Below are positions 99 to 11,229 of a stretch of 64,000 bases of DNA, piece by piece. The stretch lies in assembly GCA_027218345.1 (NCBI GenBank), contig GCA_027218345.1_3950.1; one strand, 5' to 3'. Made by a program: the position numbers and the translations under genes. The stretch is from a phage. Under the pieces are notes generated by a model. The model searched no databases. It saw only the letters and a list, made by a program, of their open reading frames with translations, and was not told the origin of the DNA. Within the stretch, counting starts at the first letter, position 1. Each line of letters opens with the position of its first letter.

Positions 99-174
99 TG
101 GAGAATCCGAGGGGACTCGAACCCTTGTAAACCTGTCTTGCAGACAGGTACATATCCATTTCTGTCACGGATTC
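99..174 (-). tRNA. tRNA-Cys (anticodon GCA)
   Basis: Minus-strand cloverleaf by hand: encoded CCA, T-loop TTCGAGT, anticodon loop CTGCAAG, acceptor cggattc/gaatccg, discriminator U. Confidence 0.6.
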
Positions 175-178
175 AAAT

Positions 179-271
179 TGGAGGAAGATACCAGACTTGA
201 ACTGGTACACCGATTTCTCAGCTACTGGCAGTTTAGCAAACTGCTCCCTTACCTTTTAGGGTTAATCTTCC
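179..271 (-). tRNA. tRNA-Ser (anticodon GCU), class II
   Basis: 93 nt, encoded CCA, perfect acceptor ggaagat/atcttcc, T-arm ACCAG-TTCAAGT-CTGGT, anticodon loop TTGCTAA, long variable arm. Confidence 0.6.
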
Positions 272-272
272 A

Positions 273-1007
273 TTATTTCTGTAATGCGTTCTTCATTTCT
301 GGTGTTGCAATAGCATCAATTACACCAGTTTTACAAGCATCATCAAACCAGTCTGGTAAGATACCTGCTAAGAACCCATTGATATTCGTTTTAAGGTACT
401 CTGCAATAAGGGCAGCTTCTTCTTCAATCATCTGCACAACTTCATCTGCATAAGCTGTAATCTTTGAAATACCTTCATTAATCTTACTGACAGCTTGGTT
501 AGCTAAATCAGAAACAGTATCAAGACCCTTGTCAATAGCGTCTTGTAAGTCACTTAACACACCATTAACACTATCTAGTGTACTGTTAATCATGTCAATA
601 GCTTTTTGACCATACTCTGTAGCAACACCCATGATACCACTGAATGGTGTACAACCAACTTGTTCTCCTGCTGCACCCATAACATTGGAGTATCCTTTTG
701 CTACCTGCATACGTGATGAAAACTCATCAATAGACTTTTGACCGTAGTCTGTTAGGGTCTTAGTAGTTGCTGTAGTGCTTGTAAGGCTTGTTGTAAAGCT
801 GTTTAGGAGGACTGTTGTAAGTCCAGCAGCAACAAGTTTCTCCTTCATTGTAGGGTCTGTTACAGAGCTAATAGAGCTTACAAGTGATGTAGAGGCAGCT
901 ACGGTTCCGCCGAGAACTGCTGCACCAGTAATAAGTGGGTTAGAAAACCCTTTACCGGTTTTTAAGAGATTAAAAATCTCCTTACCTTGTCCTGTCATCT
1001 CTTTCAT
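273..1007 (-). CDS. hypothetical Ser/Thr/Ala-rich protein inside the tRNA cluster
   Basis: ORF with ATG (MKEMTGQ) preceded by AAGGTG; upstream part of the listed ORF overlaps a tRNA and is dropped. Confidence 0.45.
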   Translation of the reverse strand: MKEMTGQGKEIFNLLKTGKGFSNPLITGAAVLGGTVAASTSLVSSISSVTDPTMKEKLVAAGLTTVLLNSFTTSLTSTTATTKTLTDYGQKSIDEFSSRMQVAKGYSNVMGAAGEQVGCTPFSGIMGVATEYGQKAIDMINSTLDSVNGVLSDLQDAIDKGLDTVSDLANQAVSKINEGISKITAYADEVVQMIEEEAALIAEYLKTNINGFLAGILPDWFDDACKTGVIDAIATPEMKNALQK

Positions 1008-1025
1008 TAAGCACCTTTGAAATTG

Positions 1026-1100
1026 GTAGTCCAGTGGGATTTGAACCCTCTTCTCATGTTTTTCAGACACGCGCTTTAACCATATAAGCTACTTGGACTA
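1026..1100 (-). tRNA. tRNA, probable Phe (anticodon GAA); CCA not encoded
   Basis: Perfect 7-bp acceptor tagtcca/tggacta, T-loop TTCAAAT, anticodon loop CTGAAAA; D-region irregular. Confidence 0.45.
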
Positions 1101-1105
1101 TAAAT

Positions 1106-1181
1106 TGGGGTGACCTACGGGATTTGAACCCGTATAGACCATGTTCACAGCATGGGTCATTACCATTTATGATAAGGCCAC
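1106..1181 (-). tRNA. tRNA-His (anticodon GUG)
   Basis: Encoded CCA, discriminator C, T-arm ACGGG-TTCAAAT-CCCGT, D-stem tcat/atga, anticodon stem ccatg/catgg with loop CTGTGAA. Confidence 0.65.
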
Positions 1182-1212
1182 ATTTAAGGACTCTCGTAAG
1201 AACCCTTAGAAG

Positions 1213-1288
1213 TGGCAGCGGCATAAGGATTTGAACCTTAATAAGACAGCTTCAGAGACTGCTGCATTGCCAGTTATGCTATACCGCT
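1213..1288 (-). tRNA. tRNA-Gln (anticodon CUG)
   Basis: Encoded CCA, discriminator G, T-arm TAAGG-TTCAAAT-CCTTA, D-stem gcat/atgc, anticodon loop CTCTGAA. Confidence 0.5.
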
Positions 1289-1293
1289 AAATT

Positions 1294-1372
1294 TGGTACT
1301 CCATATCGGATTCGAACCGATACATAACACAGATTTTAAGTCTGGCCTCTCTGCCAATTGGAGTAATGGAGC
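1294..1372 (-). tRNA. tRNA, class-I shape, anticodon probably UAA (Leu-type)
   Basis: Encoded CCA, discriminator A, T-arm ATCGG-TTCGAAT-CCGAT, D-loop AATTGGCAGA, anticodon loop CTTAAAA; short variable region. Confidence 0.4.
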
Positions 1373-1374
1373 AT

Positions 1375-1450
1375 TGGCGGGGGATGTTGGAATTGAACCA
1401 ACTTCTTCGATTTCAAAGACCGAGGTTTTAACCTTGTAAACTAATCCCCT
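1375..1450 (-). tRNA. tRNA-Gln (anticodon UUG)
   Basis: Encoded CCA, discriminator G, T-arm GTTGG-TTCAATT-CCAAC, D-stem gttt/aaac, anticodon stem tcggt/atcga with loop CTTTGAA. Confidence 0.55.
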
Positions 1451-1458
1451 TTAAATCT

Positions 1459-2016
1459 TTACTTTCTCAGTGGATGAATAAAGAATGCCAACATAACTCT
1501 TTCCCTTGAGAATGCTCTTTCTTCTGGGACAACACTTTTTAGTTTCCATCCAATATAAATTCTCCAGTAAAATTGTTTACCAAAGATTTTAATTGATGGG
1601 ATAAAAGCGAATAATCCCCAAGCATTCCTGTTCCACATTAGGAGATAACCAGTCTGATTATCTTCAGGGTTAGAACTTACGTTGATATTACCTTTCCACT
1701 TAGTAACATCTTTTACATCTCTTCCTAACACATGGTAAGAGAAGTTATAAGCTTTGTTTCTCCAGAGCCATCCAACTCTCTGCAAATAGACACCTAGCTT
1801 ACCAATCTTTCTAATCTTAGCCCATCTTTTAACGTGGCCTTCATCACCATCAATTGGGTTATCATATGTCTCCATCCATCTGAATCCAAAAGGGAGATGT
1901 CCTTTCTTCTCACTGTAGAATGGAACTACGAAAGGTGCTAAGATGACTGCTAGGGTTGCTGCAAATGGTTCTAGTAAAGCTAGGAAAATCCATGAAGCAT
2001 ACTTCAAATATCTCAT
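1459..2016 (-). CDS. hypothetical protein with N-terminal hydrophobic segment
   Basis: 185-aa ORF between tRNA genes; N-terminal stretch of about 25 hydrophobic residues. Confidence 0.45.
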   Translation of the reverse strand: MRYLKYASWIFLALLEPFAATLAVILAPFVVPFYSEKKGHLPFGFRWMETYDNPIDGDEGHVKRWAKIRKIGKLGVYLQRVGWLWRNKAYNFSYHVLGRDVKDVTKWKGNINVSSNPEDNQTGYLLMWNRNAWGLFAFIPSIKIFGKQFYWRIYIGWKLKSVVPEERAFSRERVMLAFFIHPLRK

Positions 2017-2035
2017 CTAAATAGCCTCTTAAAAT

Positions 2036-2113
2036 TGGTGTTCCAAGACGGATTCGAACCGTCACTAATACAAGGTTTGAGCTTGCATCCTCTGCCAATT
2101 GGGATACTGGAAC
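2036..2113 (-). tRNA. tRNA, class-I shape, anticodon CAA (Leu-type)
   Basis: Encoded CCA, discriminator A, T-arm GACGG-TTCGAAT-CCGTC, acceptor gttccag/ttggaac, D-loop AATTGGCAGA, anticodon stem gcaag/cttgt with loop CTCAAAC, 6-nt variable region. Confidence 0.45.
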
Positions 2114-2114
2114 A

Positions 2115-2189
2115 TGGTACTCACTAAAGGACTTGAACCTTTTTCTTCATCTTGTAAGGGTGATGTTTTACCATATAAACTAAGCGAGT
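2115..2189 (-). tRNA. tRNA-Val (anticodon UAC)
   Basis: Encoded CCA, T-arm AAAGG-TTCAAGT-CCTTT, D-stem gttt/aaac, anticodon loop CTTACAA. Confidence 0.55.
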
Positions 2190-2284
2190 GTGAAAGAGGT
2201 CTGAAGTTGTGCCGCTAACTCAACTCCGTGGAATTTGTTACGGTCTTCAGTTGACACCAGCGGTCTTTCACTTGACCTCTGAAT

Positions 2285-2361
2285 TGGTGCTGCTCACAGG
2301 ACTCGAACCTGCATTTCCATCCTTACAAGGGATGTGTAATAGCCAATTATACGAAAGCAGC
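2285..2361 (-). tRNA. tRNA-Thr (anticodon UGU)
   Basis: Encoded CCA, T-loop TTCGAGT, anticodon stem catcc/ggatg perfect, loop CTTGTAA. Confidence 0.6.
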
Positions 2362-2367
2362 TTTATT

Positions 2368-2442
2368 TGGAGCATCCAGAGGGAATCGAACCCTCAACCT
2401 CAGTTTGGAAGACTGTAATTTTCCCGTTTAAACTATGGATGC
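2368..2442 (-). tRNA. tRNA-Gly (anticodon UCC)
   Basis: Encoded CCA, discriminator U, perfect acceptor gcatcca/tggatgc, T-arm GAGGG-TTCGATT-CCCTC, anticodon loop CTTCCAA. Confidence 0.6.
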
Positions 2443-2448
2443 ACTAAT

Positions 2449-2524
2449 TGGTGGAGAAGCAGGGAATTGAACCCTGTACTTAAGTTTGCAAAACTTATGT
2501 TTTAACCATGTAAACTACATCCCC
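2449..2524 (-). tRNA. tRNA-Ala (anticodon UGC)
   Basis: Encoded CCA, G3:U70 wobble in acceptor, D-stem gttt/aaac, perfect anticodon stem taagt/actta, loop TTTGCAA. Confidence 0.65.
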
Positions 2525-2530
2525 AATGTC

Positions 2531-2606
2531 TGGTACAGGTGGAGGGAATTGAACCCATCGTCTTACTGATTAAGAGTCAGCCGCATAACCATTTTGCTAC
2601 ACCTGC
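2531..2606 (-). tRNA. tRNA-Lys (anticodon CUU)
   Basis: Encoded CCA, discriminator A, T-loop TTCAATT, anticodon loop CTCTTAA; T-stem has mismatches. Confidence 0.5.
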
Positions 2607-2613
2607 ATTAATT

Positions 2614-2690
2614 TGGTACACCTAGAGAGATTCGAACTCACACTGAGCAGATTCTAAGTCTGCTGCCTCTACCAGTTGGGCTATAGGTGC
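2614..2690 (-). tRNA. tRNA, class-I shape, anticodon UAG (Leu-type)
   Basis: Encoded CCA, discriminator A, D-loop AACTGGTAGA, perfect anticodon stem gcaga/tctgc, loop CTTAGAA, 5-nt variable region. Confidence 0.5.
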
Positions 2691-2948
2691 ATTAAATCTT
2701 TTTAGAGAACTTCTAAGAACCTAAGCAACAAGGTTCCACAACAAGCTGTAATAACCTTAGAAGCCCTCTAAAAAGACCTAAAAAGGTCTTTACATAGTCT
2801 TGTTTAATCCGGTGACTAGAACCTTTGGAGAGCTTGATATTATCTCTTCTCCGTGACACCTACTAGGTGCTTTATCAGTGTGTACGACAATACACGAGGG
2901 ATACCAAAGCAACATCCGAATGAAGCTTGGCTTTAAAATCTTATTAGG

Positions 2949-3036
2949 CGGTAAGTAAAGGAGTCGAACCCTCACCGTATCTCTACAGTGGCAACTGTTT
3001 TCAAGACAGTTTGGCTACCATTAGCCGCTACCTACC
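2949..3036 (-). tRNA. tRNA-Ser (anticodon UGA), class II; CCA not encoded
   Basis: 88 nt, discriminator G, anticodon stem actgt/acagt with loop CTTGAAA, long variable arm, T-loop TTCGACT. Confidence 0.55.
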
Positions 3037-3049
3037 CCTAATAAGACTT

Positions 3050-3132
3050 TGGCATGGGACGGAGGAGTTGAACCCCTTTGAAACGGTGTTGGAAGCCGTT
3101 GCTCATGTCTTAGAGTCTTAACATCGTCCCAC
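3050..3132 (-). tRNA. tRNA, non-canonical 83 nt, anticodon possibly CCA (Trp)
   Basis: Encoded CCA, discriminator G, acceptor gtgggac/gtcccat, T-loop TTCAACT; D region enlarged, fold uncertain. Confidence 0.4.
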
Positions 3133-3275
3133 ACTATAATTCGAAGCTTACCGTATTATCTCAACACTGTAAAGCCCCTTCTCAGATTATTTACATGTTC
3201 TGGAAAACATGAGATACAGACCACCTCCCTACAGGAAGACCCGCTTAGGTCGTCTAAGTAATCTGCTAACTAAAT

Positions 3276-3357
3276 TGGTCGAGGCGGCAGGACTCGAACC
3301 CGCATACTCCACTTACTCGGTTAACGGCTGTTTAGAAGACAGCTGAGATACGCCCCG
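3276..3357 (-). tRNA. tRNA-Arg-like (anticodon UCU), non-canonical architecture
   Basis: Encoded CCA, acceptor cggggcg/cgcctcg, T-arm GCGGG-TTCGAGT-CCTGC, stem-loop gctgt-CTTCTAA-acagc; no normal D-arm found and about 23 nt before the T-arm. Confidence 0.4.
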
Positions 3358-3561
3358 TAATTATCTTTAAAGACTCTCTTAGAAAGCCCTTAAAGATGCC
3401 CACCTTATTAATCATACCGTGGGCGAGTACGCCAAATTCTTTGATGAGGGGTTGGAAGACCTCACTGGTGTTTAGCCTATCAAGCTACTGCCAGAAAAAC
3501 ATTGTCGTTTGCATTTATTTTAAATTTGCAAAATAGACGCTACGCAACGAAAACTAAGGTT

Positions 3562-3590
3562 ACTATAAAGTAGTCACATCTCAGTGTCAA
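3562..3590 (-). promoter_or_regulatory. sigma70-like promoter candidate inside the tRNA cluster
   Basis: On minus strand TTGACA, 17 nt, TATAGT. Confidence 0.35.
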
Positions 3591-3605
3591 CAACTTTATT
3601 GAAAT

Positions 3606-3683
3606 TGGTACTGTGAGAAGGATTCGAACCTTCTGCCTTTCGGTTATCAGCCGAATGCACATCCATATGTGCTAACCCACAAT
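3606..3683 (-). tRNA. tRNA-Ile (anticodon GAU)
   Basis: Encoded CCA, perfect T-arm GAAGG-TTCGAAT-CCTTC, D-arm gcac-ATATGGAT-gtgc, anticodon stem ttcgg/ccgaa with loop CTGATAA; acceptor pairs only with a 4-nt connector. Confidence 0.5.
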
Positions 3684-3760
3684 TGGAGGTTCAGATGGGA
3701 TTCAAACCCACATTCATAGGGCTTATGAGACCCTTGCATTACCTTATCTGCGACTGAACC
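3684..3760 (-). tRNA. tRNA-Met or Ile2 (anticodon CAU)
   Basis: Encoded CCA, perfect acceptor ggttcag/ctgaacc, T-loop TTTGAAT, anticodon stem agggt/gccct with loop CTCATAA. Confidence 0.55.
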
Positions 3761-3764
3761 ATTT

Positions 3765-3840
3765 TGGTAGAAGTGGAGGGATTCGAACCCATCGCCTTTC
3801 AGATTAAAAGTCTGCCGCATCACCATTCTGCTACACTTCC
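3765..3840 (-). tRNA. tRNA-Lys (anticodon UUU)
   Basis: Encoded CCA, discriminator A, T-loop TTCGAAT, anticodon loop CTTTTAA. Confidence 0.55.
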
Positions 3841-3846
3841 ATTAAA

Positions 3847-3986
3847 TTATCTTTGTAGATAAGCTACCCAGACTTGCTTAAGGTCTGTAGCGATGTGCCT
3901 TTTTGGGTTTAAATCTAGAATTTACCCTTTCACCCTTTGTGGTCGCATACTCACAGGTAAGCTTAATAACTTATCTACAAAGATAA
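3847..3986. repeat. pair of identical 16-bp palindromic hairpins in inverted orientation flanking 108 bp
   Basis: TTATCTTTGTAGATAA at 3847-3862 and its reverse complement at 3971-3986. Confidence 0.6.
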
Positions 3987-4268
3987 TTACCAGACCGTTG
4001 TTTATCATCTTAAGTGCTACCATTACACCAACTCGACATCTGCCGAGTGAAGGAATCGAACCTTCGCCTTTTCTTTACCGAGAAATAGATTGTTTAAGTT
4101 TTGCTGTAAACGGTCTTCTGTAAATTTGTTGAGCCAGACCAAGTTTTAAATTTTTCAAAATTAAATTGGCTTGAAATTTTAAGTAACTTGCTGTATTTGG
4201 TCTTCTGCTCCTTTAAAGGATGCTCGTAAGAACCCTTTAAGGGAGGGGCTAAATAGCCCTCTCAAAAT

Positions 4269-4343
4269 TGGCGAGGTGTGCGAGAATCGAACTCGCGGCT
4301 CAGGAGAGACAATCCAGTATTTTACCCGTCTAAACTAACACCC
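4269..4343 (-). tRNA. tRNA, probable Asp (anticodon GUC)
   Basis: Encoded CCA, discriminator G, perfect T-arm GCGAG-TTCGATT-CTCGC, D-stem gttt/aaat, anticodon loop TTGTCTC with one stem mismatch. Confidence 0.45.
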
Positions 4344-4350
4344 CAAAACC

Positions 4351-4779
4351 CTATGTACCATTTCTTAAGTACTTTTCTTTGCGTCTTGCTGAATTATAGT
4401 ATTTACGCCCTTCAGCATTTTTAGAAAGCCTACAAGCCTCACACCTGCATCCTCTTCTATAACCAGAAACTGTACCATGTTTAATTGGTGTGTACTTCCT
4501 TTCACCAATCTGTTTTGGTCTTGTTGCTTTCGAGTTACAGTGTATGTGGCTATATGAGATGTTATCTAGTGAAAAGAAAAGCTCTTTTGCATTTTCACTA
4601 TGTCTCCACGGAGTCTTATGCTCAATAGAGAAATCATCCCTAGTCATTTCTTTCCCGCACTGAAAACATCTATTTTGATTTGTTTTACATATAAAATCAA
4701 ATAGTAAATCTTTTACTAGCCTGTTTTGTGCAGTTCCTAAACTCATACCAAGCTGTGATTTGTATACTTCATCTCTCAT
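4351..4779 (-). CDS. HNH homing endonuclease
   Basis: HNH/zinc motifs CFQCGKE...IEHKTPW...SHIHCN and C-terminal CxC cluster; embedded in tRNA cluster; internal ATG start preferred over TTG. Confidence 0.65.
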   Translation of the reverse strand: MRDEVYKSQLGMSLGTAQNRLVKDLLFDFICKTNQNRCFQCGKEMTRDDFSIEHKTPWRHSENAKELFFSLDNISYSHIHCNSKATRPKQIGERKYTPIKHGTVSGYRRGCRCEACRLSKNAEGRKYYNSARRKEKYLRNGT

Positions 4780-4802
4780 GACTAAGTATCTCAATAAGTG
4801 TT

Positions 4803-4890
4803 TGGTGTGCCGTGTAGGAGTCGAACCTACCGAGTCTCAATGACAAGGGATTTACAGTCCCCACCGCTACCATCTACGGGATAACGACAC
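4803..4890 (-). tRNA. tRNA-Tyr (anticodon GUA), class II
   Basis: 88 nt, encoded CCA, perfect T-arm GTAGG-TTCGACT-CCTAC, anticodon stem-loop gggga-CTGTAAA-tccct, long variable arm. Confidence 0.6.
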
Positions 4891-4899
4891 ATTTAAATT

Positions 4900-4976
4900 T
4901 GGCGGTTAGTCAGGGATTCGAACCCTGTGCCATTCGCTTAACAGGCGACCGCACATACCTTATGTGCTTCCTAACC
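4900..4976 (-). tRNA. tRNA-Asn (anticodon GUU)
   Basis: Encoded CCA, discriminator G, perfect T-arm CAGGG-TTCGAAT-CCCTG, D-stem gcac/gtgc, anticodon loop CTGTTAA. Confidence 0.55.
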
Positions 4977-5053
4977 TTAATACATTGCCAGACCGTGTTT
5001 TTTCTTTTATCCGCAAAAAGTATTTTGTTGCTGAATACGGTCTTCTGCAAAAT

Positions 5054-5130
5054 TGGAGGCGGGTGCAGGAGTCGAACCTGCCGATACCATGCTAATGAGA
5101 CATGTGAGACGCCCTTTCTCTATACCCGCA
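5054..5130 (-). tRNA. tRNA-Met or Ile2 (anticodon CAU), second copy
   Basis: Encoded CCA, perfect T-arm GCAGG-TTCGACT-CCTGC, anticodon stem catgt/gcatg with loop CTCATTA; T1:C72 mismatch. Confidence 0.5.
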
Positions 5131-5221
5131 ATTCTTAATGACCAGACCAAATCTCTTCTTTGTCCGATTTACCTTCAGATGAATAAGATTAAGTTTGCTG
5201 TAATTGGTCTTCTGTCAAAAC

Positions 5222-5299
5222 TGGCGTTCCAGAAGGGATTTGAACCCTCAAATATCCACTTTGAAAGAGTGGTGACTTTACCATTTTGTCTACTGGAAC
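5222..5299 (-). tRNA. tRNA-Glu (anticodon UUC)
   Basis: Encoded CCA, discriminator G, perfect acceptor gttccag/ctggaac, T-loop TTCAAAT, perfect anticodon stem ccact/agtgg, loop CTTTCAA. Confidence 0.55.
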
Positions 5300-5306
5300 A
5301 TTAATT

Positions 5307-5382
5307 TGGTCTCTGTTGGAGGACTTGAACCTCCGGCCTTACCGCCCCAAACGGAACGCTCTACCAAGCTGAGCTAAACAGA
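5307..5382 (-). tRNA. tRNA-Pro (anticodon UGG)
   Basis: Encoded CCA, perfect acceptor ctctgtt/aacagag, D-arm gctc-AGCTTGGTA-gagc, T-arm GGAGG-TTCAAGT-CCTCC, anticodon loop TTTGGGG. Confidence 0.6.
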
Positions 5383-5548
5383 GATAAACTTTTCAAACTC
5401 TATGTAACCACTTTAACATTATTTTTTAGTGGTTGTCAAGAACTTTTTAAAATATTTTTCAGTATCTTAGAAAAGCTCTCATTTCGTTTCTATGTAGAAC
5501 ATATTAAAGGGTATCAAACACATTGTCAATACCCTTTTTTAAAACTTT

Positions 5549-6964
5549 TTACCAGATGTAACGGTCAATCATTACTGCTTTGAGCATTACGCTGATTGGG
5601 TCAAACTTCTCACCACCAAGCAGAGCTTTTAAAGTGGCTGGAGAGAAACCAGATACCATTGCTACACCGTTATCCTTAACAGACACTTCGCAAGTGCCAT
5701 TACGGTTTGCTAAGTACCAGAATACCAGTTGTGGCATCTCATATCCAGCTTTTTTGTACTTACTCTGAATTGCTTCAAAGTTTGTACGACCGTTAGCTCC
5801 ATCAACCTGATTGAACTCCATATCAGAGAAGATGATAAGCTTACTTGGCATATCTTTCTGAGTCAAGTTGTTTCTCTTACCTGTCTCAAGGATGCGGTCA
5901 AAAGCTGCTTGTAAGTTAGTTGAACCGTATTCAACATGTCGCATTACCTGACGGTGACGGTTCTTTAAATCGCCACTCAGTTCGATGAAATGAGGGTTTG
6001 TTGAATAAACCATTAACTCGTTCTTAAAGCAACCTGTATTGCGTTCTGCTACATACAAGGCAAGTGATACACCAATATCAAGGGCAGTAATTGAGCCAAA
6101 ATTCACCCAAGACATTGAACTTGAAACATCAGACATACATAGAATGTTTTCACCCTCTGCCATCCAGTTTGGTAGTGCTTTCCACTGCTCATTAGCAACA
6201 TCTGCATTACCATACTTAACAGATTTAATCACATCGTATGGGTAAACAGCACCAGCATTAATCTTAGTCTCACCTTTTGATAAAGACTCAATGTAAGCTT
6301 TGTAGCGTTCTCCATCTTTACGGTTAAACAGTTTTTGGTAACGTGCAGCAGCAAGTGAAGGAATCTTACTGTAGTCAATCTTACCAAACTCATTAGCAGA
6401 GATTTTTTGCTCAACCGTATCAGATAGTGCAGACAACAGTGTGCGGTACTCTTTCTCACTTAAGTTTGCAAACTTACAGAAACGTTTTACAAACTGCTTA
6501 TGACGTGGTTTGACTCGTGGTAACCACTTAGCTGCTAAACCTGCTGTTGCAGGGTCTAGTAATGCTGCTTCTAAATGTTTGAAGGCATCTGTCTCGAAAC
6601 GAGTACCTACGAAGATTTTGAAGTCATCAAAACGACCAAGTTCTGCAATCTTATCCATAATGCGAAGAACCTGTGTAGGCTCTAAAACTTTATCTTCAAT
6701 CGCTTGAAGCAAAACTGTTCTGAAGGCTTTACGCTCACCCATGCCTTCTCGTACATCTCGCATATGCAGTAAAATACGAACTGCAACATCAACATCCTCA
6801 CGCAAAGCTTTGTAGAACAGGTCTGGTAAGATTTCTACATTGCTACGGCTTGAACCAGCAGCTTTGTAAAAGTCTACAAGAGCAGACATTGATGAAGTAT
6901 GGTTTACAGCACCATTTTCAGTTCGACCTGCATGAAGGTGCGCATGTTTAAATAACTCGCTCAT
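5549..6964 (-). CDS. vWA-domain protein with MIDAS motif (DUF2828-like)
   Basis: 471-aa ORF; DxSxS motif (MSDVSSSM) followed by vWA-like hydrophobic strands. Confidence 0.6.
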   Translation of the reverse strand: MSELFKHAHLHAGRTENGAVNHTSSMSALVDFYKAAGSSRSNVEILPDLFYKALREDVDVAVRILLHMRDVREGMGERKAFRTVLLQAIEDKVLEPTQVLRIMDKIAELGRFDDFKIFVGTRFETDAFKHLEAALLDPATAGLAAKWLPRVKPRHKQFVKRFCKFANLSEKEYRTLLSALSDTVEQKISANEFGKIDYSKIPSLAAARYQKLFNRKDGERYKAYIESLSKGETKINAGAVYPYDVIKSVKYGNADVANEQWKALPNWMAEGENILCMSDVSSSMSWVNFGSITALDIGVSLALYVAERNTGCFKNELMVYSTNPHFIELSGDLKNRHRQVMRHVEYGSTNLQAAFDRILETGKRNNLTQKDMPSKLIIFSDMEFNQVDGANGRTNFEAIQSKYKKAGYEMPQLVFWYLANRNGTCEVSVKDNGVAMVSGFSPATLKALLGGEKFDPISVMLKAVMIDRYIW

Positions 6965-7808: not shown

Positions 7809-8042
7809 ATGTGTAGTTCCCAATTAGAAATCGCAGATATTATAGATTTATATAAAACTGCAAAGAGTCATGGCTATATAACCTCAATTGGAAAGAATAG
7901 TCACTACGATGCTTTGACTGGAATGTATTTCAGGGCAATGGCTCAATCTAGTGAACAACACTTAATGGTTTCTTCCAGTGAGTTTACTTCGTTTCTCTAT
8001 TGCAGCAAAATTATAAATCGCAGGAGAACTGAAAAATGTTAA
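7809..8042 (+). CDS. hypothetical protein
   Basis: 77-aa ORF, first of plus-strand block. Confidence 0.3.
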   Translation: MCSSQLEIADIIDLYKTAKSHGYITSIGKNSHYDALTGMYFRAMAQSSEQHLMVSSSEFTSFLYCSKIINRRRTEKC

Positions 8043-8626
8043 CAGTAAGTTTTAATTACAATAGTGATGGCTCTGTATCAATTAATTCACCATATGCAAA
8101 TGACCTGCTTAAAGAGCTAGTCAATCAGTGTGATAGAGGTCTTCACTATGTTCAAAATTCTTTTAAACAGAAGACTATTGCTAATAACTTGATGCGTGTA
8201 ACAGTAACGGCATCGAATCCAAATTATGACTTTGATAGTGAAAGTCCGTACTCATTAGTTGCGCTTGGAGAGAGCAGACAATTCAAACTTGTTTGCCACG
8301 ACTCAGAAACATTCCTTAAGGTCTTTTCCAACCTTATCCATAATAATAAGTACAGCTACGTTGATGGTAGTGTAAATTTCTATCCAGCAAACTATACATG
8401 TTTGTTGGTTGATAATATGAGAAAAAGTAAGCAAGAGCCTACGGAAATTTCATTTGATGTGAACTCTAGTCCAGACGCAGAAACAAGTAAGAACTTTGAT
8501 ATGAGTTACGCATTGTCACTCAGTAAGAAATCCGAGTTCATTGATTATGTCAATGGATTTGGTTTTAAGTTTGATGAGAGTATGAATCTTAAAAAACTTA
8601 AGAACCTACTTAAGACCAAAGCTTAA
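8036..8626 (+). CDS. hypothetical protein
   Basis: 196-aa ORF followed by a hairpin terminator. Confidence 0.5.
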   Translation: MLTVSFNYNSDGSVSINSPYANDLLKELVNQCDRGLHYVQNSFKQKTIANNLMRVTVTASNPNYDFDSESPYSLVALGESRQFKLVCHDSETFLKVFSNLIHNNKYSYVDGSVNFYPANYTCLLVDNMRKSKQEPTEISFDVNSSPDAETSKNFDMSYALSLSKKSEFIDYVNGFGFKFDESMNLKKLKNLLKTKA

Positions 8627-8634
8627 GTGTGAAT

Positions 8635-8662
8635 AGGGGCTGATGCCCCTTTAACTATTTAT
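8635..8662 (+). terminator. candidate terminator hairpin
   Basis: AGGGGCTGATGCCCCT then T-rich tail. Confidence 0.4.
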
Positions 8663-8673
8663 AAGGATATTTA

Positions 8674-9045
8674 ATGAAAGCTAAGAGTGCAAAAGACTTT
8701 TATTGCTTCCTACAATCCTATATCAATTCCGTGCAAAATGGTGAAAGGTACAACCTTAATGATGTTATTCCAACACCTTTGACATGGAGACTCAGTAAAT
8801 GGCCTGAAGAAGATATTACACCAACAATCGAACAACGCACCTACAAACCCGAAATCAATATTCCAGACTCTGAGAATCTATTATATCCAATGTTCCATAT
8901 TGTTGGTCTTGGAAGATTCCTTATGGATATCCAGTATGTAATTGGTAAAGGTTATAAGGTTAAAGGTATTGTTGTTGGTGATGTATCTCCACAACATAAA
9001 GGCTATTTTAGATTAAACGCACGTTTAGAGGCTAAAAAGAAATGA
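8674..9045 (+). CDS. hypothetical protein, paralog of the N-terminal domain of the next gene
   Basis: Shares YKPE/YKPD, LLYP/LLYS and FLMDIQYVIGKG/FFMDLQYAIINGK motifs with the 9042 ORF. Confidence 0.55.
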   Translation: MKAKSAKDFYCFLQSYINSVQNGERYNLNDVIPTPLTWRLSKWPEEDITPTIEQRTYKPEINIPDSENLLYPMFHIVGLGRFLMDIQYVIGKGYKVKGIVVGDVSPQHKGYFRLNARLEAKKK

Positions 9046-9926
9046 TTAAAGCAAAGACTTACCCAGACTTCAAAGAATTTGTAAAGGGTTTCATTGCAAA
9101 TGTAAAGGCTGGTAAGAGGTATGATTTTAGAACATATCAAGAGGCTATTTTACCACTTACCTATAGCTCGTATTGGCCTGAAGCTGATATTGCAGAAGTT
9201 GAGAAGTTTGACTATAAACCAGACTATAAAGTTCCATTTAGTGATGAGTTGCTTTACAGTGTTGGTGCTCAAATGAGAACTTCTGACTTCTTCATGGACT
9301 TACAATATGCAATTATCAATGGCAAAGACGTTGATACAGTTTATTGTGAATGGCTGGCAAGAGTTAAACCATTCTCAATGTTGAATGCTAAGTTGAAGGA
9401 CGCTATCAAGCCACCATCAATCACTCAGCAACCAACCAATCAAACAGTAAATGAAGGTGGTACACTTACCCTAAGCGTTATTGCAACTAATGCCACTGGA
9501 TATCAATGGAAAAAGGATGGTGAGGATATCACTAGCGCCACATCTGCAACCTACACAAAACAGTCTGTAGCACCTTCTGATGCTGGTTCTTATACTTGTG
9601 TTGTGTCTGGAGAGGCTGGTACAAGTGTTACCTCAGATGCGGCAACAGTTACTGTTAACGCACTGCCTGTTATTACACAGCAGCCTTCTGGTCAGACTAT
9701 CAATGAGGGCGGAAACATCAACTTGGTAGTGGCTGCAACAGGTGCAACAGGTTACCAGTGGAAGAAAGGTGAGGAAGATATCCTCGATGCAACCGCTGCA
9801 ACTTACACTAAAGAAGGTGCAACCGCTGCTGATTCAGGAAGCTACACCTGTGTAGTTACTGGTGCAGGTGGCTCTGTAACATCTAACGCAGCAACAGTTA
9901 CAGTTAATCCAGCAGGGGAGGCATAA
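9042..9926 (+). CDS. Ig-like domain protein (two tandem Ig-like repeats)
   Basis: Two ~90-aa repeats each with GYQWKK...ATYTK...SYTCVV...ATVTVN pattern typical of Ig-like folds. Confidence 0.6.
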   Translation: MIKAKTYPDFKEFVKGFIANVKAGKRYDFRTYQEAILPLTYSSYWPEADIAEVEKFDYKPDYKVPFSDELLYSVGAQMRTSDFFMDLQYAIINGKDVDTVYCEWLARVKPFSMLNAKLKDAIKPPSITQQPTNQTVNEGGTLTLSVIATNATGYQWKKDGEDITSATSATYTKQSVAPSDAGSYTCVVSGEAGTSVTSDAATVTVNALPVITQQPSGQTINEGGNINLVVAATGATGYQWKKGEEDILDATAATYTKEGATAADSGSYTCVVTGAGGSVTSNAATVTVNPAGEA

Positions 9927-10390
9927 TGCAACTCTCAAGAAAAGGCTTAGAAGCTATTAAGTTCTTTGAAGGTCTTAAGTTAGAGGCTTACGAAGACTCT
10001 GCCGGAATCCCAACAATCGGGTATGGTACAGTCCGTATTGACGGAAAACCTGTTAAGATGGGTATGAAAATTACTGCTGAACAAGCTGAGCAGTATCTTC
10101 TCGCAGATGTTGAAAAGTTCGTTGCAGCAGTGAACAAAGCCATCAAGGTTCCAACTTCTCAGAACGAGTTTGATGCACTTGTAAGTGAAACATACAACAT
10201 TGGTATCACAGCTATGCAGGACTCTACATTTATCAAGCGCCACAACGCTGGTAATAAGGTAGGTTGTGCAGAAGCTATGCAGTGGTGGAACAAGGTTACA
10301 GTCAAAGGTCAGAAGGTCACTTCAAACGGCCTGAAAAACAGACGTAGAATGGAAGCTGACATTTATCTTGACAGTGTATACCCAAAGTAA
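9926..10390 (+). CDS. endolysin, T4-type lysozyme (GH24)
   Basis: N-terminal FEG...YEDSAGIPTIGYGT catalytic region of phage lysozymes; terminator hairpin immediately downstream. Confidence 0.8.
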   Translation: MQLSRKGLEAIKFFEGLKLEAYEDSAGIPTIGYGTVRIDGKPVKMGMKITAEQAEQYLLADVEKFVAAVNKAIKVPTSQNEFDALVSETYNIGITAMQDSTFIKRHNAGNKVGCAEAMQWWNKVTVKGQKVTSNGLKNRRRMEADIYLDSVYPK

Positions 10391-10399
10391 TATCTTCAT

Positions 10400-10428
10400 A
10401 GGCTCCTTCGGGAGCCTTTTTTTATTTT
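10400..10428 (+). terminator. rho-independent terminator after endolysin
   Basis: Hairpin AGGCTCCTTCGGGAGCCT followed by T7 run. Confidence 0.6.
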
Positions 10429-10442
10429 CTAAGGAGAAAACT

Positions 10443-10841
10443 ATGAAGCTTTGGGCTAGTGACTTTGGGACTTTTAAGTACACTCGTAATGGTTCGCTTG
10501 TACGCATTGTTGGAAACAATGTGGTTTCAAGAGGCGACAAGGTGTATACACGGTTCACTGTAGAGCTTGTTGAACTGTCACCTATTGAGTCTGTGAACAA
10601 TGGCCTGTTCAAGTTTGAGACTTACAATGTCAATGAGCATGGGCAATTCAACCCTCTTGGTGAAAGTGGACTTGATATTATTTCAGAACACCCGTTGACA
10701 AAAGAGCAACTTGCAAGTTATTATAAAACTGTTCTTGAAAGGCAGTTAGCAACACATGAACAAGAAGCTAACTACCATTTACAACATTGCGAAATTTTAA
10801 GAGAAAAAATCGAACAAGCAGAGAGAGGTTTTTATGAATAA
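10443..10841 (+). CDS. hypothetical protein
   Basis: ORF starting MKLWASD with strong AAGGAG RBS. Confidence 0.5.
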   Translation: MKLWASDFGTFKYTRNGSLVRIVGNNVVSRGDKVYTRFTVELVELSPIESVNNGLFKFETYNVNEHGQFNPLGESGLDIISEHPLTKEQLASYYKTVLERQLATHEQEANYHLQHCEILREKIEQAERGFYE

Positions 10842-11229
10842 TAACAGTCATATTCACGTTAAAGTTGATGTCAGTCGTTACAGCGAAAATGAGGAACTAG
10901 ACCTACAAGATGCTCTTCTCTTTGAGAAGAATGGTAATCTTCATTTGCATTTTGAAGGTACAAACACATATCTCCACAGATGCCGAGATGATGCAGATGG
11001 TTGCCCTGTTTTTGCTTGGTATAATTTAGAGTTTCCTCTTTACGCAATCCACTACCCAGATGGTGGAGAAGACTGGACAACTCAATCAATCTTTGATGAG
11101 CTTAACGGTATTCCTGTTGAGCAAGAAGAGCAAGAGCCTGTTGAACTCACCTTCACTTTTATCAAAGAAGAGAAAGTAGGTGAATTGTCCGTAACTGAAG
11201 CAATTCAAGTCACACAGGTTATTCGTTAA
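10834..11229 (+). CDS. hypothetical protein
   Basis: 131-aa ORF, overlapping stop/start with neighbours. Confidence 0.5.
   Translation: MNNNSHIHVKVDVSRYSENEELDLQDALLFEKNGNLHLHFEGTNTYLHRCRDDADGCPVFAWYNLEFPLYAIHYPDGGEDWTTQSIFDELNGIPVEQEEQEPVELTFTFIKEEKVGELSVTEAIQVTQVIR

Follow-up and report, generated by a model that had tools for sequence, protein, structure and literature searches.

Positions 8,674 to 10,390 of the window, which is the whole 64,000-nucleotide stretch of phage DNA analysed here (GenBank assembly GCA_027218345.1), make up the three-gene head-decoration cassette of a phage of the Felix O1 type, packed between two terminators (Table 1). It is very probable that the 294-residue product of the middle gene is an ortholog of the capsid decoration protein Hex-Dec, and that the gene in front of it encodes a functional paralog consisting of the capsid-binding domain (CapBD) only. 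Hex-Dec itself is already known and has been solved in close relatives of this phage.

The cassette and its transcription signals

By nucleotide similarity, the window is that of a Felixounavirus. A megablast search with positions 8000-10900 matched 239 phage records, nearly all of them Felixounavirus or relatives, and Felix O1 matches the query over its full length at 95.9% identity. The Felix O1 counterparts of the three genes are ORF37, ORF36 (labelled “gene 12, tail protein”) and ORF35 (endolysin), and the corresponding protein identities are 97.6%, 96.3% and 99.4%.

Table 1. Features of the head-decoration cassette, with positions in the window.
Feature	Positions	Strand	Description
Terminator-like hairpin 5′ of the cassette	8636..8662	+	GGGGC-TGAT-GCCCC, then TTTAACTATTTAT
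Short paralog	8674-9045	+	123 aa; Felix O1 ORF37; PHROG 4463; CapBD fold only, without Ig-like domains
Hex-Dec gene	9042-9926	+	294 aa; Felix O1 ORF36
CapBD of Hex-Dec	9042..9407	+	aa 1-122; anchor residues Arg79 and Arg107
Ig-like repeat 1 of Hex-Dec	9414..9662	+	aa ~125-207; GYQWKK...SYTCVV; Pfam Ig_3, Ig_2, I-set
Ig-like repeat 2 of Hex-Dec	9663..9911	+	aa ~208-290; second Ig_3 stretch
Endolysin, T4-type lysozyme	9926-10390	+	154 aa; Felix O1 ORF35
Intrinsic terminator 3′ of the cassette, strong	10400..10426	+	AGGCTCC-TTCG-GGAGCCT, then TTTTTTATTT

The short-paralog and Hex-Dec genes overlap by 4 nt (ATGA), which suggests that the short paralog is translationally coupled to Hex-Dec, and the Hex-Dec stop codon overlaps the endolysin start by 1 nt. 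A Shine-Dalgarno sequence, AAGGA, is found 8 nt upstream of the short-paralog gene. The hairpin in front of the cassette is identical to the Felix O1 terminator t38, “ggggctgatgcccctttaactatttat” (Table 2 of PMC3185647); its T-tract is interrupted, so that it is missing from the list produced by the terminator scan, and it was found by reading the sequence. The terminator behind the cassette was matched by the scan, has a 7-bp stem with 5 GC pairs, and corresponds to Felix O1 t35 (PMC3185647, Table 2).

Only ~24 nt separate the t38-like hairpin from the ATG of the short-paralog gene. This leaves no room for a promoter between them, and the cassette is therefore probably transcribed by read-through from upstream. 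The promoter scan found no sigma-70-like promoter in front of the cassette, the region holding 5 sites compared to 9.5 in shuffled sequences. A T4-type late promoter in “TATTTATAAGG” was considered and rejected, as it would leave the ribosome-binding site no space.

Identity of the 294-residue protein

Among PDB sequences, phmmer matches the 294-residue protein to chain S of 9NCF (Bas63 capsid, 460 aa; E 7e-246) and to chain S of 9C2D (Sf14 capsid, 372 aa; E 3e-159). Residues 1-122 are nearly unchanged relative to the modelled part of both chains, while the Ig repeats align repeatedly. These orthologs are a monomeric Hoc-like decoration protein, termed Hex-Dec in Bas63 (PMC12609058) and gp20 in Sf14 (PMC11821841), which cryo-EM places at the centres of hexamers and which projects one to four flexible Ig-like domains outward (PMC12609058, PMC11821841). 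In Sf14, Arg79 and Arg107 anchor the protein to Asp221 of the major capsid protein (MCP) (PMC11821841). Both arginines (Sf14 numbering) are present in the translation from the window, in the contexts ...AQMR79TSD... and ...WLAR107VKPF..., and the CapBD evolves with a dN/dS of 0.035. The Bas63, Sf14 and Felix O1 (gp36) orthologs share with the present protein the I-set-type Ig repeats, the locus beside the lysozyme and the R79 and R107 pair, and the only difference is the number of Ig repeats, which is 2 here, 4 in Bas63 and 3 in Sf14.

In the solved orthologs, the 60 pentamer-proximal hexamers of the T=9 head each receive one monomer, whose helical N-terminal CapBD is plugged into the hexamer centre. 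The CapBD is held there through Arg79 and Arg107 binding to MCP Asp221, and flexible I-set-type Ig-like domains, two in this phage, are displayed outward.

Location of Hex-Dec on the virion of this phage is expected from its orthologs in Bas63, Sf14 and Felix O1. Sf14 gp20 has been found in virions by mass spectrometry (PMC11821841), and Felix O1 gp36 was identified in CsCl-purified virions by the same technique with 14 peptides and 44% coverage (PMC3185647). By RT-PCR in one 2010 study, the transcripts of Felix O1 ORF36 and ORF37 are maximal at 60 min, together with those of structural and morphogenesis genes, while the transcript of the endolysin gene ORF35 peaks earlier, at 25 min (PMC3185647).

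A sequence-only reading of this locus had taken the Ig-bearing product to be early and non-structural, and suggested that it could bind peptidoglycan or carbohydrate on the cell surface; on this view it would perhaps assist the lysozyme. The setting of the gene lends itself to such a view, as Hex-Dec is encoded among small genes with no assigned function, far from the structural module, and abuts the endolysin gene in an order that is conserved across the subfamily; in addition, Ig-like domains can bind glycans. This view is nevertheless highly improbable, since the orthologs have been solved on the capsid (PMC12609058, PMC11821841), gp36 of Felix O1 is a virion protein with a late transcript, and the endolysin transcript peaks before those of ORF36 and ORF37 (PMC3185647). 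Moreover, the N-terminal domain is a capsid anchor, neither a wall-binding nor a catalytic module. In Bas63 and Sf14, too, over 10 kb separates the ortholog gene from the structural module (PMC12609058, PMC11821841).

The Ig-like repeats and comparison with other decoration proteins

That the longer gene carries two Ig-like repeats with a GYQWKK...SYTCVV pattern, as first noticed from the sequence, is borne out by profile searches. The two C-terminal repeats are 68% identical to each other (E 5e-37), and they match Pfam Ig_3 (E 1e-22, in two stretches), Ig_2 and I-set (E 1e-15), all above the curated cut-offs. The dN/dS of repeat 1 is 0.118, and the number of repeats ranges from 1 to 4 among relatives. 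Such domains had been considered unusual at this position; they are instead the expected display module of a Hoc-like decoration protein.

The Ig part also explains the label, “major tail protein” or “HK97 major tail subunit”, under which the gene is usually found in databases. The PHROG “major tail protein” profiles 158, 853 and 3575 align to the Ig region only (aa 96-208), and homology to a tail-tube domain was rejected. The database “tail” label of Hex-Dec arises because these profiles match the Ig part, and the Bas63 paper likewise regards “tail protein” as a misannotation (PMC12609058).

Like Hex-Dec, T4 Hoc is a non-essential monomer that sits at hexamer centres and displays a string of Ig-like domains. 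However, the likeness is limited to the Ig part: the CapBD is C-terminal in Hoc and N-terminal here, and that of Hex-Dec is larger, with pseudo-C2 symmetry and a topology of its own (PMC12609058). The PHROG “Hoc-like head decoration” profiles match aa 121-292 only (E 7e-29). With the domain order reversed, the profile match confined to the Ig region and the CapBD topologically distinct, membership in the Hoc family was rejected, and Hex-Dec is an analogue of Hoc with shared Ig modules.

The decoration protein pb10 of T5 is similar in sequence to the Ig region (8zvi_a, E 1.6e-11; 5lxk_A, E 3.1e-11; PDB 8ZVI and 5LXK), but over aa 131-207 only. It differs in having a single Ig domain, and the capsid-binding domains of the two proteins have no similarity. 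We know of no anchor-only paralog of pb10.

By analogy with T4 Hoc, the Ig arms of Hex-Dec probably provide weak adhesion to glycans or other surfaces, or control the aggregation of particles. Binding to glycans or to the cell surface is the usual hypothesis put forward for Ig arms of this kind.

The endolysin and the conserved gene order

The product of the third gene matches PF00959 Phage_lysozyme (E 8.5e-41) and the PHROG 7 endolysin profile (E 1.8e-57), and it evolves with a dN/dS of 0.094. This agrees with the sequence-only reading, which had placed the endolysin directly downstream of the Ig-bearing gene. The order of a CapBD protein followed by a lysozyme is kept in Felixounavirus, Mooglevirus, Suspvirus and Kolesnikvirus and in two metagenomic lineages. 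Beyond this conserved gene order, nothing was found that links the Ig domains of Hex-Dec to peptidoglycan or to endolysin action.

Origin, fold and distribution of the short paralog

The two upstream genes had been proposed to share an N-terminal domain of ~120 residues as the result of tandem duplication, and pairwise alignment confirms their relationship. In BLASTP, the short paralog aligns to Hex-Dec residues 2-119 at 36% identity (E 1e-16); the alignment spans 121 aa and has gaps at 5 positions. At the DNA level, the two genes are alike in one 21-nt patch only, which argues that the duplication is old. Word-indexed homolog searches with either paralog returned its own clade only, and the link between the two required BLASTP, phmmer against the PDB and an exhaustive profile search.

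Helix 1 and the core motifs LLY, F-MD-QY and LNA-L are invariant across the paralogs. There are 37 fixed differences between the short paralogs and the CapBD of Hex-Dec, and the two clades are least alike at Hex-Dec positions 76-80 and 104-107, which are the segments that contain R79 and R107. In a neighbour-joining tree, the short paralogs form a clade with 100% bootstrap support outside a group of Hex-Dec and the Erwinia (Kolesnikvirus) proteins. Support for this placement is 69% only, evolution is faster in the short clade, and the tree does not order the duplication relative to the Erwinia branch.

The short paralog is a real gene under purifying selection. Its dN/dS is 0.135 (pairwise Nei-Gojobori, 36 pairs from nine phages in three genera, mean dS ~1), and its length is constant at 122-124 aa across genera and lineages down to 45% identity. 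The protein matches 9ncf_S directly (E 2.5e-12), and an AF2 model built from a 20-sequence alignment reaches a pLDDT of 78 and a pTM of 0.78; an alignment of 14 sequences gave a pLDDT of 62 and was not used, and it was the addition of distant members that raised the value to 78. When this model was compared to the whole PDB with Foldseek, it matched 9c2d_S (TM 0.81/0.83) and 9ncf_S (TM 0.79/0.80), with no other match at E<0.1 and the next at E 0.15.

When 1.84 billion representative proteins were searched exhaustively by profile, 12 members of the CapBD family were recovered, and the CapBD is thus a small, lineage-restricted domain. All 12 come from Ounavirinae-like phages, and all of those that were checked are found at this locus. 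Among these, P0099 is a short paralog with 45% identity to the one in the window; it lies on an 87-kb metagenomic contig, where it is followed by a Hex-Dec of 298 aa (P0100) and a lysozyme. The same order in so divergent a phage argues that the tandem pair is old and has been maintained. Compared to this divergent lineage, the short paralog is 46% identical and the CapBD of Hex-Dec 59%. Other arrangements also occur. In Erwinia phage phiEa104 (Kolesnikvirus), the only CapBD protein carries a Big_2 domain in place of I-set domains and is followed by a lysozyme, and no short paralog was found. In a more distant lineage, the sole CapBD protein (P0105) has a Lys-rich tail but no Ig domain, and it too lies beside a lysozyme. 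In ~50 sequence clusters, the short paralog never carries Ig arms.

The short paralog has also been lost. In about 19 of 253 records, the sole match to the short paralog is the cross-match to Hex-Dec. REP11, vB_CECAV_041 and EcF-vB, which come from three countries, have a common ~220-bp deletion together with loss of the start codon, and among these three records the loss is one ancestral event. Deletion in this viable REP11-type sublineage means that the short paralog is dispensable for propagation. This dispensability, and the fact that the protein product is not detected in virions, would also be expected if the short ORF were a decaying, functionless remnant of the duplication. It is very unlikely to be one, since its dN/dS over 36 pairs at a mean dS of ~1 led to rejection of pseudogene status, its length is held constant, it has a good Shine-Dalgarno sequence and its transcript has been detected (PMC3185647). 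The copies that truly are non-functional look different, as they carry start loss, deletion and frameshifts.

Neither the Bas63 nor the Sf14 structure paper mentions the short paralog, the word “paralog” occurs in them zero times (PMC12609058, PMC11821841), and it is likewise absent from the Sf14 supplements. A search of later literature found nothing further on Hex-Dec or the short paralog.

Possible roles of the short paralog

The anchor arginines of Hex-Dec are altered in the short paralog. The residue at the R79 position is Gly in all members, and that at R107 is Gln in Felixounavirus, Mooglevirus and Suspvirus. Taken from the alignments, this loss is suggestive only of an altered binding surface, because the divergent P0099 has Arg at the R107 position and the anchor arginines are not universal among single-copy distant CapBD homologs either. 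An electrostatic argument for capsid binding was also rejected, since the net charge of the short paralog varies (pI 9.3 here versus 5.6 in Mooglevirus and Suspvirus).

It is possible, if doubtful, that the short paralog has been repurposed, so that it works off the capsid and its CapBD fold binds some other phage or host partner late in infection. Such a change would be consistent with the loss of both arginines and the 37 fixed differences, with faster evolution than the CapBD of Hex-Dec (dN/dS 0.135 versus 0.035; the identities of 46% versus 59% to the divergent lineage) and with absence from the virion data as far as the sources cited below report them. However, no search suggested a partner, and the family remains confined to its 12 Ounavirinae-like members, at this locus where checked. 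Strict adjacency to and overlap with the Hex-Dec gene argue, moreover, for a linked function.

The virion data come from two phages. The 17 virion proteins listed for Felix O1, with a cut-off of at least 25% coverage, do not include gp37 (PMC3185647). For VpaE1, the main text of the proteome report states that gp54, gp58 and gp68 are the only additions to the Felix O1 list, and the short paralog (ORF40 in that phage) is not among these named additions. In silico digestion of the short paralog yields six tryptic peptides of 7-30 residues that cover 76% of its length, and those predicted from the window include DFYCFLQSYINSVQNGER, YNLNDVIPTPLTWR, WPEEDITPTIEQR, FLMDIQYVIGK and GIVVGDVSPQHK. With this many suitable peptides and this coverage, a technical artefact is an unlikely cause of the absence from the lists. 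Both cryo-EM studies, in addition, report no density on the remaining (true 3-fold) hexamers (PMC12609058, PMC11821841), where icosahedral averaging would blur a monomer on the 3-fold axis.

These observations bear on the idea that the short paralog is a second, Ig-less cap, seated on the 20 facet-centre (true 3-fold) hexamers or on a few special ones, so that the two paralogs would discriminate between quasi-equivalent capsomers. The full CapBD fold is kept in the AF2 model, the transcript peaks late and the ATGA overlap suggests translational coupling to Hex-Dec, while divergence from Hex-Dec is concentrated in the segments that contact the capsid. The exclusion of Hex-Dec from the true 3-fold hexamers of Sf14 has been ascribed to a shifted geometry of Asp221 (PMC11821841), and a differently shaped anchor could fit there; the distant lineage with P0105 as its sole CapBD protein also does without an Ig domain. 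A second cap is nonetheless improbable, given the lack of density in two independent cryo-EM studies (PMC12609058, PMC11821841), the absence from two virion proteomes, as far as the VpaE1 main text reports, in spite of six well-sized tryptic peptides, and the loss of the gene in a viable sublineage. An equally improbable variant is that the short paralog caps facet-centre hexamers, or immature capsomers, to which Hex-Dec has no access, and that its binding is so weak that it is lost on purification or averaged out by symmetry.

The reading put forward here, tentatively and as a weakly supported possibility, is that the short paralog is a dispensable accessory that acts late inside the cell and is not part of the virion, so that the mature head would not keep it. 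During head maturation it may bind the centres of capsomers, or Hex-Dec itself, in a transient or weak manner, and it could, for example, help to set the binding sites of Hex-Dec rather than form a second stable decoration.

Pairs of products with and without an extension are also known from phage morphogenesis. The tail chaperones G and GT are short and long products that share an N-terminus, and Ig-like domains are reportedly added to phage structural proteins by programmed frameshift, as described by Fraser et al. in 2006. The present pair resembles these in that two products with a common N-terminal domain are made side by side and one of them is extended at its C-terminus. It differs from them in being encoded by separate, overlapping genes whose products are 36% identical, and in that the binding surface of the short form has diverged and this form has not been observed in virions.

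Significance

What is usually called a “tail protein” or “HK97 major tail subunit” is, in Felix O1-type phages, the Hoc-like protein that decorates the head, and in Hex-Dec the Ig domains are expected and not anomalous. The CapBD is an anchor that carries interchangeable modules, namely one to four I-set domains, Big_2 in Erwinia phages, or a Lys-rich tail, and this modularity is relevant where therapeutic phages of the Felix O1 kind are engineered or used for display. If it is true that the short paralog shapes the occupancy of Hex-Dec, the pair would illustrate in a simple form how paralogs can read quasi-equivalent sites on a capsid. If the short paralog were instead a second cap, the Ounavirinae would have duplicated an anchor that distinguishes quasi-equivalent hexamers and thereby patterns the display of Ig arms.

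Genomic Setting of the Decoration Cassette

The short paralog, Hex-Dec and the endolysin are separated from a tRNA gene cluster by a gene for a DUF2828/DUF7788 protein (see the table). The gene order DUF2828, DUF5681, and then a CapBD protein and lysozyme on the opposite strand is conserved as far as the distant metagenomic lineage L013. The tRNA cluster is larger than the set of 22 genes listed for Felix O1 (PMC3185647), and compared to that table the window additionally has two tRNA-Ser genes (gct, tga) and a second tRNA-Met gene.

On the other side of the cassette, the ORF at terminator t35 begins, as mechanically called, with a TTG codon upstream of t35, and its frame reads through the terminator. 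The PHROG 4266 alignment begins only at residue 26 of this ORF, and the Felix O1 homolog, ORF34, is 132 aa long. Translation probably begins instead at an ATG near position 10443.

A Felix O1-like region with 95.5% identity to the window region is also found at 141333–144232 of GenBank GU169904.1, which is annotated as “Staphylococcus phage SA1” (147 kb). The GenBank entry itself appears to be chimeric or contaminated.

Features of the window in and around the decoration cassette
Feature	Position	Strand	Remarks
tRNA gene cluster	99-5383	-	24 genes
DUF2828/DUF7788 protein	5549-6964	-	471 aa; PHROG 850 “RNA-binding protein”
Ig repeats of Hex-Dec	9414-9911		best non-phage solved match 9flp_A, E 5.4e-27
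Mechanical ORF	10368-10841	+	TTG start

Loss of the Short Paralog

In one Felixounavirus sublineage, represented by REP11 (L004, 2305–2498) and by the relatives L017 and L018, the short paralog was eliminated by a single ancestral deletion of ~220 bp together with loss of the start codon. The dead gene still retains its 3′ end, and with it the translation start region of Hex-Dec. This sublineage occurs in the USA, Spain, and Egypt.

CapBD as a Modular Anchor

CapBD is a modular anchor, as seen in Erwinia phage phiEa104 (L005, 2941–3555), in the homologous proteins P0101, P0102, and P0105, and in L013 (5001–5462). In CapBD orthologs of Erwinia Kolesnikvirus, a Big_2 domain (PF02368, E 8.5e-21) takes the place of the I-set domains, and in one distant lineage CapBD carries only a Lys-rich, apparently disordered tail with no Ig domain.

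Outside phages, the solved protein that the Hex-Dec Ig repeats match best is GhpA, a grappling-hook protein from the predatory bacterium Aureispira, which is nearer to these repeats than any animal Ig protein. Among Hex-Dec orthologs of close relatives (L006, L007, L008, and P0052–P0094), the number of repeats varies, with one in SP22 and many metagenomic sequences, two in the window, three in HY02 and Sf16, and four in Bas63, while CapBD is 98–100% identical within the genus. This variation in copy number despite a nearly invariant CapBD fits a history in which recombination has repeatedly added and removed Ig repeats.
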